A DNA stretch of 32,000 bases from NCBI GenBank assembly GCA_027460535.1, contig JAPZAR010000030.1, positions 89,827 through 121,826 on the forward strand, in the 5' to 3' direction. Position 1 is the stretch's first letter. Each line of letters starts with the position of its first letter. Below, in pieces: positions 24,377 through 27,790 of this stretch. The position numbers were made by a program, and so were the translations under genes. The stretch is from Candidatus Methanoperedens sp. (GTDB lineage: Archaea > Halobacteriota > Methanosarcinia > Methanosarcinales > Methanoperedenaceae). The notes beneath the pieces were generated by a model. It made no database searches and was not told the DNA's origin. It saw nothing but the letters and a program-made list of their open reading frames with translations.

Positions 24377-24775
24377 ATGAAAAAGCAAAAAGTACTTATT
24401 GTGGATGATGAGCCGTTGAACATTGAATTGATGGAAGGGATCCTTTCAAAGGATTACGAAGTCATTAAAGCATCCAGCGGGATAGAGGCTTTGATCAAGG
24501 TGGAAAAAACCTTGCCTGACCTTATACTATTAGACGTAATGATGCCGAATATGAACGGTTATTCGGTTTGTAAGAACCTTAAGAGCAGCAATAAGACGAA
24601 GTCCATACCCGTCGTGATGATAACGGCCTTGAAAGAGCATGAGGACAAAATGAAAGCCATAGAGGCCGGTGCAGACGATTTCGTGAGCAAACCAATTGAG
24701 ATACGCGAATTGGGTGTTAAATTGAGATCATTGCTGAAAGCTAAAAACCAGTATTTTTCCGTACCGGCAGCATAG
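24377..24775 (+). CDS. Single-domain response regulator (CheY-like REC)
   Basis: ATG at 24377 with an AGAGGAAG SD is preferred over 24299. Sequence: [15 protein letters not shown]...[15 protein letters not shown]...PVVMITA...KPI. The 3' end overlaps the tgt 3' end by 35 nt, convergently. Confidence 0.85.
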
Positions 24776-25892
24776 ATGATACAGGTACACAAGGCGTTTT
24801 AAAATCAGAGGTAATACATCTCTTGTACTCGATAAACCCATCCTCAAGTATTGCATCTCTCGCGGATTTCACAATTTTTTGCATGAAGAAAAGGTTGTGG
24901 ATGGATGCCAGACGCAGCGCCAGAAGTTCAGATCCCTTAAAAAGATGGTGCAGATACGCCCTTGTGTAGTTCCTGCATGTGTAGCATCCACATTCCTCAT
25001 CAACAGGCGCAAAATCCATGGCAAATTTCCCACGGGCTATGTCTATATTTCCCCTTCCTGTCATCAGGGTCTGGTGTCTGGCGTTCCTCGTGGGATAGGC
25101 GCTGTCAAAAATGTCCACACCGGATTCTATAGCCTCAAGCAGTTCCACGGGTGAACCCACGCCCATAAGGTAGCGCGGCTTATTTTCAGGAACTAAAGGT
25201 ATGCTGTGTTTCAACACATCATTCATTAATTCCTTCGGCTCACCGATTGAAAGCCCTCCTATCCCGTATCCATCAAAATCCATCTCCACAAGCTCCTCTG
25301 CGCATTTTTTCCGAAGATCTGCAAAGGTACCTCCCTGAAGTATTGCAAAAAATAGCTGGTTCTCGTTTTTCTGTACTCCTTTTGCCTTTTTCGCCCATCG
25401 GATCGTACGCTCGACAGAAGCCCCCACTGCGCTATAATCACTCCCATATGCAGGGCATTCATCCAGTATCATGGCGACATCGCTTTCCAAAATCTTCTGG
25501 TTTTCAAGGCATATTTCCGGTGTGTATGAGTATTTCTTTCCGTCACGAGGATTTTTGTAAGTTATTCCATCATCGGTTATCTTGAAAGGGAAGTCCTTGC
25601 GTATCATCTGGAAACCACCGCTATCTGTGAATATGGCTCGTTCCCAGTGCATGAATTTATGCAGTCCTCCGGCTCTCCTGATAACCTCCATACCAGGAGC
25701 AAGAAAAAGGTGAAAAGCGTTGCTGATAAGCACCTGTGTATCCATAGCATAGAGTTCCTCCGGGATAAGAGTCTTGACAGTAGCCTTAGTGGCTACCGGC
25801 ATGAATGCCGGAGTATCTGCAATCCCGTGGTTCGTTTTGAGCTTGCCGACCCTTGCGCACGTGTTCTTGTCTGTGTGGACCAATTCGAACAT
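24741..25892 (-). CDS. tgt: Queuine/preQ1 tRNA-ribosyltransferase, bacterial type (Tgt)
   Basis: 383 aa, collinear with bacterial Tgt. Motifs: [35 protein letters not shown], zinc site [17 protein letters not shown]. It lacks the C-terminal C1/C2/PUA domains of archaeosine ArcTGT. Confidence 0.9.
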
Positions 25893-25894
25893 GA

Positions 25895-26899
25895 TTACCT
25901 GAAAACCAGCATTGAATCGCCGAAACTGTAGAACCTATATGAATGCGATATGGCTTCATCATAAGCAGCCATCAGCCTTTCCCTGCCTGCAAACGCGCTC
26001 ACGAGCATCAATAATGTGGATTTAGGGAGATGGAAGTTTGTTATTAATGCGTCAATTCCTGACCTGAACCTGTAGGAGGGATAGATGAAAAGCTGGCTGA
26101 ACCCTTCCATGGGGTAGATTTTGCCATCCGCACATGCACTTTCAAGTGCCTTTACAGTGGTAGTCCCGGCAGCTATCAGCTTTCCCTTGTTCTCATTTAT
26201 CAGTTCTGCATTTTCAGGGCTGACAGAAACATATTCCGGTTCCATGACATGTGTTTCGATATTTTCAGCCTTAACGGGGGTGAATGTCCCAAGACCTACA
26301 TGAAGCGTGATATAGGCGACATTAACTCCTTTTTCCGCAATCTTCTCCAGCAAACCGTTCGTAAAATGAAGGCCGGCAGTGGGCGCCGCTATCGAGCCTT
26401 TTTCTTTTGAATACACCGTTTGATAGCGGTTCCTGTCCTCAAGTTTTATCTTGATATAGGGAGGAAGAGGTGCATCCCCTATTTTATCAAGGATTTCATG
26501 CAGGTTCCCGTTGCAATTGAATTCCAATAGATACCTGTTAGAGTTCGGATTATGTACGACTTCAAGGACCTTTGCCTCAAGCTCACCAAAATTCAATTTC
26601 GTCCCTTCGCGGATATTCTTGCCCTGAACCAGGCACTCGTATCCAGGACCACTTCTACTCACCACCAGAGCCTCGACATGGCCACCTGTACTTTTTTTGC
26701 CTGAAAGCTTTGCGGGAATGACTCTTGAGTCGTTAAGAACAAGGGTATCCCCGTCTTCAAAATAGTCAAGGATATCCGAAAAACATCTGTGCTCGATATG
26801 TTTCCCAAGCACCATTAATCGAGACGCATCCCTTGGTTCTATCGGGGACTGTGCGATAAGCTCTTTTGGAAGATGGTATTCGAAATCGCTGAGTTTCAT
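25895..26899 (-). CDS. queA: S-adenosylmethionine:tRNA ribosyltransferase-isomerase QueA
   Basis: 334 aa with [65 protein letters not shown]. The stop lies 2 nt before the tgt start. Confidence 0.9.
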
Positions 26900-27013
26900 C
26901 TGCTGCTTAGTTCACAGGATGAGTTAAGTAATTTTTCTTGGTTTAATCCTCCGGCCTGATCACGGCACAGTAATTATCTGAACTGGAAGCAAGAATGGAT
27001 TTATGCTTCGACC

Positions 27014-27790
27014 TTAGATTTTTATCAATATCTCATCACCCAGGGTTTTGTTGAAAAAAGCTGCGGCATTCCCCATATTTACCGCAATTTCAAGGAATCC
27101 ATGGCTGCCAATTAATGCCAGGGGCTCTCCCGTTCCAGAAAATCCATAAGAGCTAAGAAAAGGAACCTTTCTTCCCTGGATCTCGAGCAAATCGCCATAT
27201 TTGAATTCTACGATATCGGATGATATGTTTGTCACAATGTTCCCGAATGAATCGATAAATATGATCATGCCCTCCAGCGCACCTTTTTTCTTCCTTCCTT
27301 GTCCAAATTCCAGATCTATATAATCAAATATCTGTTCCCCTGAAGCCCTTATATCCAGTCCTTTTGAGATATGCGCTCCAACCGGCGCGAAAATATCTCT
27401 CCCATGAAATGTGCCGGACACATTCTTACGGAACAGCTTCTCATTTGTAATTATATAAGCCTCAAAATCCCCAATGCTCCTTGCTGCGGGGATGAGAAGA
27501 CCGTTATCAGGACCCGTAAAATAATGGGTTCCAAAATAATCAGATTCAGCCTTAACTGCAATCTGACGACGCTCCGTTCCTACCCCGGGATCGACCACAG
27601 CTATATGCACAGTCCCGGATGGGAAAAACCGCGCGCAGGACATCAATATGAATGCTCCGGCGCGTATATCGTACCTGGGAATTGAATGCGAGATGTCGAC
27701 TATACTGGCGGCCGGATTGATGCTCAGGATTACCCCTTTCATGGAAGCAGGGTACACATCCCCGAAATCTGAGAGCAGCGTTATGACCAT
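27014..27790 (-). CDS. SAM hydroxide adenosyltransferase / SAM hydrolase (DUF62; fluorinase-chlorinase superfamily)
   Basis: 258 aa with ITLLSDFG, VVDPGVGT, GPDNGLL and HGRDIFAP, characteristic of DUF62 proteins. Confidence 0.85.
   Translation of the reverse strand: MVITLLSDFGDVYPASMKGVILSINPAASIVDISHSIPRYDIRAGAFILMSCARFFPSGTVHIAVVDPGVGTERRQIAVKAESDYFGTHYFTGPDNGLLIPAARSIGDFEAYIITNEKLFRKNVSGTFHGRDIFAPVGAHISKGLDIRASGEQIFDYIDLEFGQGRKKKGALEGMIIFIDSFGNIVTNISSDIVEFKYGDLLEIQGRKVPFLSSYGFSGTGEPLALIGSHGFLEIAVNMGNAAAFFNKTLGDEILIKI

Follow-up and report, generated by a model that had tools for sequence, protein, structure and literature searches.

How a bacterial-type pathway for queuosine (Q) can stand in an archaeal chromosome, and whether such a pathway is complete, is the question raised by a 32,000-nucleotide stretch of a Candidatus Methanoperedens genome, which belongs to the anaerobic methanotrophic (ANME) lineage ANME-2d. 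This stretch (G000:C30:89827-121826) is called the window here, and coordinates are internal to it unless prefixed with a G, C or L label. By the textbook division, queuosine belongs to bacteria and eukaryotes and archaeosine to archaea. The window nevertheless holds adjacent queA and tgt genes of bacterial type, a queH gene and a DUF62 gene. Our reading is that queA-tgt and queH probably constitute a native, vertically inherited, bacterial-type pathway for Q at tRNA position 34. It would exist beside the archaeosine enzymes ArcTGT and ArcS, and 7-cyano-7-deazaguanine (preQ0) would be reduced in it to 7-aminomethyl-7-deazaguanine (preQ1) by something other than QueF; the DUF62 gene would be unrelated to it. 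The four genes, with lengths in amino acids (aa), are as follows.

24741..25892, minus strand: tgt, bacterial-type tRNA-guanine(34) transglycosylase, 383 aa, catalytic domain alone
25895..26899, minus strand: queA, tRNA preQ1(34) S-adenosylmethionine (SAM) ribosyltransferase-isomerase, 334 aa
27014..27790, minus strand: DUF62 SAM hydroxide adenosyltransferase/(R)-SAM hydrolase family, 258 aa, with SAM_HAT_N and SAM_HAT_C
18431..18961, plus strand: queH, epoxyqueuosine (oQ) reductase of the DUF208 type, 176 aa

Identity and age of the queuosine genes

The Tgt protein scores 461 bits with TIGR00430 (cut-off 307) against 157 bits with the ArcTGT model (cut-off 350). Residues 13-361 make up the Pfam TGT domain, and the protein has no domain after it, in agreement with a preliminary description of this DNA, which had called the 383-aa protein bacterial in type and devoid of the C-terminal domains of ArcTGT and had placed it at exactly these coordinates. 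Its best solved relative is the Thermotoga maritima TGT (2ASH, E 4e-106). In the alignment with the E. coli and T. maritima enzymes, the DSGGFQ, DEC, GGLSIGE, FDS and CGCYTC..HH motifs are all in register. The zinc site CxCxxC..H is retained, as is the Cys of DEC in the pocket, and an Ile stands at the position of E. coli Val217, as in T. maritima. From the literature on Z. mobilis and E. coli, we take a pocket with Cys and Val or Ile to be of the preQ1 type, the eukaryotic, queuine type having Val and Gly. Salvage of queuine by this Tgt was considered and rejected on the Cys and Ile of its pocket, which are those of preQ1-type enzymes.

QueA scores 422 bits with NF001140 (cut-off 324) and 385 bits with TIGR00113 (cut-off 267), with residues 1-333 covered, and two bases separate queA from tgt; a full-length QueA at this very spacing had been described before. 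QueH reaches 198 bits with PF02677 (cut-off 23.5) over profile positions 1-175 of 175, and no NCBIfam model matched it. The queH gene lies 5.8 kb from queA-tgt and is unlinked to it in G000; in another genome (G050; L097) QueH directly adjoins tgt. QueG was rejected as the oQ reductase: its match is partial and, at 39 bits, under the cut-off, and QueH covers the step. Among the tRNA genes of G000 with GUN anticodons are those for tRNA-His(GUG), tRNA-Asn(GUU) and tRNA-Asp(GUC). The enzymes are presumably active and Q is presumably present in the tRNA of the organism.

The Q pathway of bacteria such as T. maritima uses the same Tgt, QueA and QueH; here Tgt and QueA are above the curated cut-offs and QueH is above the gathering score. 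The preQ1-type pocket is identical to that of 2ASH, and adjacency of queA and tgt is common in bacteria too. The archaeal host differs in having ArcTGT and ArcS as well, and in lacking QueF and the known precursor transporters. Variants of the genes were seen elsewhere. In an uncultured Planctomycetia metagenome-assembled genome (MAG; L028, ~4864-6969), QueA and Tgt are apparently fused in a single 711-aa open reading frame (ORF), the identical ORF having been recovered with both the QueA and the Tgt query. One Methanoperedens genome, G046, has its QueH match in two pieces (G046:C30:50590-51094), so that the gene may be frameshifted or broken, and has queA twice, with equal scores, on contigs G046:C4 and G046:C25.

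Since the genes are of bacterial type, with closest non-archaeal relatives just 45-52% identical, the contig could in principle be bacterial or chimeric and its archaeal attribution an artifact of mis-binning. This is extremely improbable. The contig, of at least 121 kb, carries archaeal genes on either side of the Q locus, and the assembly (2.9 Mb in 37 contigs) is 99.84% complete with 0.69% contamination. The queA-tgt pair recurs in other genomes of the family, some of them closed or nearly so. The closest Tgt and QueA sequences, at 74-83% identity, come from Candidatus Methanoperedens MAGs (Tgt 80-83%). The composition is native: the guanine plus cytosine (GC) fraction is 0.466 for tgt and 0.456 for queA, against a median of 0.468 for ORFs, and in codon-usage distance from the genome mean tgt falls in the lowest 7% and queA in the lowest 2% of long ORFs. 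A bacterial or chimeric contig is thus ruled out by the archaeal flanks, the completeness and contamination values, the conservation across the family and the codon usage, and the earlier placement of the locus in an archaeal chromosome stands.

For the distribution of the genes, families are labeled f1 (Methanoperedenaceae), f4 (ANME-2 and Ca. Methanocomedens by NCBI label), f6 (a Methanosarcinaceae-like family) and f10 (NCBI label 'Methanocellales archaeon'); f2, f3 and f5 are further families. QueA is present in 48/52 genomes of f1 (33/34 among those of high quality), 16/20 of f4, 1/1 of f2, 1/6 of f3 (a closed genome of 1.92 Mb) and 4/4 of f10. It was not found in f6 (0/177), in f5 (0/27) or in the other ~390 genomes of the phylum that were sampled. 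QueH was found in all 38 high-quality f1 genomes, and the queA-tgt order is maintained in f1, f3, f4 and f10. The Q module is now common to Methanoperedenaceae, ANME-2a/b/c, a closed sister-family genome and the MAG family labeled 'Methanocellales'.

In the Tgt tree the 21 archaeal sequences form a single group, with a support of 100 in the Shimodaira-Hasegawa-like approximate likelihood ratio test (SH-aLRT), and f1 and f4 are each monophyletic. In the QueA tree 35 archaeal-type sequences likewise form a single group (98), separate from 35 bacterial ones. No donor can be named, because the trees are quick LG+G4 searches with midpoint rooting. Omnitrophota were considered in this role for their queH-queA-tgt order and the top QueH identities (42-49%), yet neither tree places them as the sister group of the archaeal sequences, and they are unsupported as donor. 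For queA the ratio of nonsynonymous to synonymous substitution rates (dN/dS) is 0.10-0.14; for tgt, where dS is saturated, it is ~0.04-0.06. Both genes are under purifying selection. An old, ameliorated and retained acquisition, as first proposed in the preliminary description, is supported by the distribution, the monophyly, the native GC and codon usage and a dN/dS of ~0.1. The Q genes thus appear old, native and functional, and a single ancient acquisition, by an ancestor or by few archaeal lineages, seems to hold.

The step from preQ0 to preQ1

The proposed pathway would convert G34 of tRNA-Asp, tRNA-Asn, tRNA-His and tRNA-Tyr to queuosine in five steps. The archaeal QueC/QueD(/QueE) route would supply preQ0, which would then be reduced to preQ1. 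Tgt, with its preQ1-type pocket, would insert preQ1 at position 34, QueA would add the epoxycyclopentanediol from SAM, and QueH would reduce oQ to Q. Genome-wide searches of G000 found genes for preQ0 formation (QueC, 206 bits; QueD, 72 bits), along with an ArcS-like gene and an ArcTGT that scores 644 bits. In these searches QueF (PF14489) had no match in G000, and it is absent from 52/53 genomes of Methanoperedenaceae and from all five genomes searched in f3, f4 and f10. The sole QueF match above the cut-off among the 53 lies at a contig end (G012:C66:700-936), and may represent a contaminating contig or a separate acquisition. Precursor transporters of the YhhQ/QPTR/Vut_1 (PF02592) and QueT/QrtT (PF06177) families had no match in the 99.8%-complete G000.

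Because QueH is present throughout while QueF is absent, the conversion of preQ0 to preQ1 is the sole step left uncovered, and QueF is not its enzyme in these archaea. Without QueF, the Q pathway as annotated is therefore incomplete. The earlier suggestion that a functional Q34 pathway had been kept is accordingly borne out in part, by the retention of the genes and the purifying selection on them, and qualified by this gap. A 2026 review sets QueF apart as a nitrile reductase class of its own (PMC13740343).

Clustering of the ORFs around archaeal queA-tgt loci detected a pair of genes that is our preferred candidate for the missing step. In G000 it lies outside the window.

G000:C10:126302-127926 (= L105:7297-8927), minus strand: HGD-D-like iron-sulfur protein (315 aa) and BcrAD/HgdC-type ATPase (228 aa)

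Where the pair neighbors queA-tgt in other genomes, it consists of an HGD-D protein of ~313 aa and a BcrAD/BadFG-type ATPase of ~235 aa, to which the G000 orthologs are 57-59% identical. The HGD-D protein scores 81 bits with PF06050 (cut-off 28). Its partner scores 176 bits with the acyl-CoA dehydratase activase model TIGR00241 (CoA, coenzyme A; cut-off 125) and contains both Cys residues that an activase should have. The AlphaFold model of the HGD-D protein has a predicted local distance difference test score (pLDDT) of 94.7, and with it Foldseek retrieved 3O3N, 8S02 and 6ENO at probability 1.00. Against 2-hydroxyisocaproyl-CoA dehydratase, the benzoyl-CoA reductase BzdNO and the double-cubane protein, the template modeling (TM) scores are 0.75-0.82 at 15-18% identity. 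Domain, adjacent ATPase and fold all place the pair in the HGD-D/archerase superfamily with its ASKHA (acetate and sugar kinases/Hsc70/actin) activase. The double-cubane cluster protein (DCCP) model NF040772 gave 35 bits against a cut-off of 350, and Cys45, Cys73 and Cys269 are the only invariant Cys of the HGD-D protein.

The layout of an HGD-D-fold iron-sulfur protein with an ASKHA two-Cys ATPase is that of the archerases, namely HadBC/HadI, the class I benzoyl-CoA reductases and DCCP/DCCP-R. The candidate differs from them in its length of 315 aa, in having three invariant Cys where the double-cubane motif has six, and in its low identity to the solved members. The subfamily is rare: a search of 1.84 billion representative proteins gave only 189 clusters at E<=1e-3. 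More distant bacterial relatives of the HGD-D protein are 30-37% identical, one example being in an anammox genome that lacks QueF (G633). No CoA-ester pathway was found near the pair. Enzymes of the superfamily receive low-potential electrons energized by ATP. QueF, which performs the step missing here, has no relation in sequence or fold to the pair. We propose, as a possibility that falls short of an even chance, that the HGD-D protein and the BcrAD-type ATPase may act as an ATP-driven, low-potential preQ0 reductase replacing QueF in archaeal Q pathways.

The distribution of the pair points in this direction. Among 401 sampled genomes of the phylum, the HGD-D protein occurs in exactly the eight that hold QueA. 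Within the order the pair is present in 38/38 genomes of f1, 1/1 of f2, 1/1 of f3, 8/8 of f4, 0/3 of f5 and 1/124 of f6. The pattern with QueF is reciprocal: the Tgt-bearing archaea that hold the pair have no QueF, and the genomes with both Tgt and QueF (one Hydrothermarchaeaceae MAG and two Omnitrophota) lack the pair. Gene neighborhood adds a third association: in ANME-2a, f10 and an unclassified archaeon, the pair and queA-tgt are divergently oriented neighbors. In a sample of 80 metagenome contigs encoding the HGD-D protein, 20 ANME-2-like loci extend at least 1.2 kb upstream of the pair, and 8 of these have queA within 1 kb upstream; in a more distant tier, queA occurs somewhere in 5 of 25 loci. 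On one contig of 70% GC (L169), queH, tgt, queA and the genes for the HGD-D protein and the ATPase all fall within 5 kb, and in several Methanoperedens genomes QueH is 3-6 kb from the pair. QueC, QueD or ArcTGT was found near the pair in a single metagenome locus, with QueD 6 kb away (L187). A role of the pair as an alternative oQ reductase was ruled out by the presence of QueH in the same genomes.

Some very GC-rich metagenome contigs (69-71% GC; L168-L171, L179 and L192) also carry the HGD-D pair. In L169-L171 and L179 the pair is accompanied by archaeal-type queA, tgt and queH, and a neighbor in L169 encodes an Ssb-like OB-fold protein.

Several observations weigh against the pair as preQ0 reductase. 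The independent co-occurrence events are few (a single clade of Methanosarcinales, f10 and some unplaced contigs), and because all linked QueA fall in one clade, joint movement of the genes as a module may be all that lies behind the association. In G000 the pair is unlinked to the Q genes and lies directly downstream of MptA (L105:9423-10373), a methanopterin enzyme encoded elsewhere in the genome than the window; of 19 Methanoperedens-like metagenome contigs that reach far enough upstream, 9 show the same adjacency. A link to FolE2 was considered and dropped, since the GTP cyclohydrolase beside the pair is MptA and so lends no support to a deazaguanine role. The one clear exception to co-occurrence is a closed 4.6-Mb f6 genome (G218), which has a 57%-identical HGD-D ortholog (G218:C1:3202569-3203498) and in which searches for bacterial Tgt, QueA and QueH gave nothing. 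In a genome of 93% completeness (G001), searches found the pair and QueH, but neither QueA nor Tgt. We also know of no enzyme of the HGD-D superfamily that reduces a nitrile.

These exceptions bear on a different explanation, in which preQ1 is salvaged from neighboring bacteria by a transporter outside the known families and the HGD-D pair has some other function in the lineages concerned. The adjacency to MptA in Methanoperedens and the occurrence of the pair in G218, without any Q genes, agree with it, as does the life of ANME archaea in dense consortia. There is also a bacterial precedent: many bacteria with Tgt, QueA and QueG/H and without QueF depend on preQ1 salvage (PMC11130926). However, neither known transporter family has a match in a practically complete genome, and these archaea already make preQ0. 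Salvage also leaves unexplained the reciprocal pattern with QueF and the repeated adjacency of the pair to queA-tgt-queH in lineages whose QueA proteins are 41-57% identical. We consider it rather unlikely.

It is more improbable still that the pair acts at a later step, reducing preQ0-tRNA after Tgt has inserted preQ0 or making a further derivative of Q. Bacterial TGT does accept preQ0, and the association ties the pair to the Q module and not to a particular step. However, QueA needs the amine of preQ1, QueH, encoded in the same genomes, already accounts for the conversion of oQ to Q, and nitrile reduction is the only gap in the pathway. Reduction of preQ0 to preQ1 by the HGD-D pair is our preferred, tentative reading.

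The DUF62 gene and the remainder of the window

The gene 114 nucleotides upstream of queA, on the same strand, encodes both SAM_HAT domains (PF01887, 178 bits; PF20257, 82 bits), so that its position and family are as first described. On the NCBIfam equivalogs for (R)-SAM hydrolase it scores 187 bits against a cut-off of 470 and 174 against 350. It had been left undecided whether its adjacency to queA, whose product uses SAM, was functional or coincidental. DUF62 might work with QueA, clearing inactive (R)-SAM or tuning the supply of SAM, and the three genes might then form an operon. Besides strand and spacing, this view can call on the coordinate comparison: in about 16-18 of the 36 high-quality family genomes, the gene immediately upstream of queA, and in the same orientation, is DUF62, and one of these adjacencies is in a second genus (G050; L097).

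The wider distribution makes such a tie improbable. Among high-quality genomes DUF62 is present in 36/38 of f1, and also in 104/124 of f6, a family in which no genome has QueA. It was not found in five QueA-bearing genomes (G059, G060, G063, G065 and G072). In the remaining genomes of the family, about half, it lies on other contigs than queA, and it was never near queA in f4, in f10 or in ~40 bacterial queA-tgt loci. Phyletically, DUF62 is thus independent of QueA. Because the adjacency is seen only within one family and in about half of its genomes, it is probably an inherited gene order. Coincidence is favored over function, and DUF62 is probably a housekeeping gene of the SAM hydrolase family, functionally unrelated to queA.

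Other genes of the window are those of an archaeal chromosome, as had been recognized from the start.

11661-12674: FEN-1, archaeal flanking gene
15119-16129: UPF0020-type tRNA methyltransferase, archaeal flanking gene
27847-27922: tRNA-Arg(TCG), CCA not encoded

Two paralogous B12-binding radical SAM proteins (4729-6087, minus strand, 452 aa; 10293-11624, plus strand, 443 aa) border a stretch rich in glycosyltransferases. Positions 7001-8000 are low in GC (0.33, against 0.44 for the genome) and hold a DUF4062 protein (7210-8028, minus strand); this may be a small foreign insert.

Known occurrences and meaning

Q genes were already on record for this order: QueA, QueH and Tgt are reported by Castelle et al. 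2021 (PMC8204110) in 34 archaeal genomes, 12 of them DPANN together with some Methanosarcinales. The genes and the archaeal order are the same as here, and the window is a further instance. The passages of that paper on these genes cover the last three steps to Q and do not mention preQ0 or preQ1, which is where our analysis differs. The NCBI annotation already names QueA in Ca. Methanoperedens nitroreducens and in many MAGs. The novelty that the preliminary description saw in the genes themselves consequently falls away, as they are common in ANME-2 lineages and were published in 2021. Literature searches found nothing that links queuosine with Methanoperedens or ANME, nor HGD-D or double-cubane enzymes with queuosine. 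The new findings here are that QueF is consistently absent and that a specific candidate to replace it exists outside the window.

DCCP, an archerase of the same two-component layout, reduces acetylene, and its physiological substrate is not known (PMC7317905). The claims on the pathway and on the reductase are directly testable, since near-axenic Methanoperedens cultures now exist (PMC13748539).

These methane- and alkane-oxidizing archaea appear to run the queuosine and archaeosine pathways off a single pool of preQ0. Their version of the Q pathway lacks QueF as well as any known precursor transporter. Three kinds of association tie one rare gene pair to the Q genes: co-occurrence, gene neighborhood and the reciprocal occurrence of the pair and QueF. 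To our knowledge QueF is currently the sole biocatalyst for the reduction of a nitrile to an amine. If the proposal is true, the HGD-D/ATPase pair would be the second known biological nitrile reductase, with a new enzyme chemistry for this reaction, and would give this branch of the archerase/double-cubane superfamily its first physiological role.

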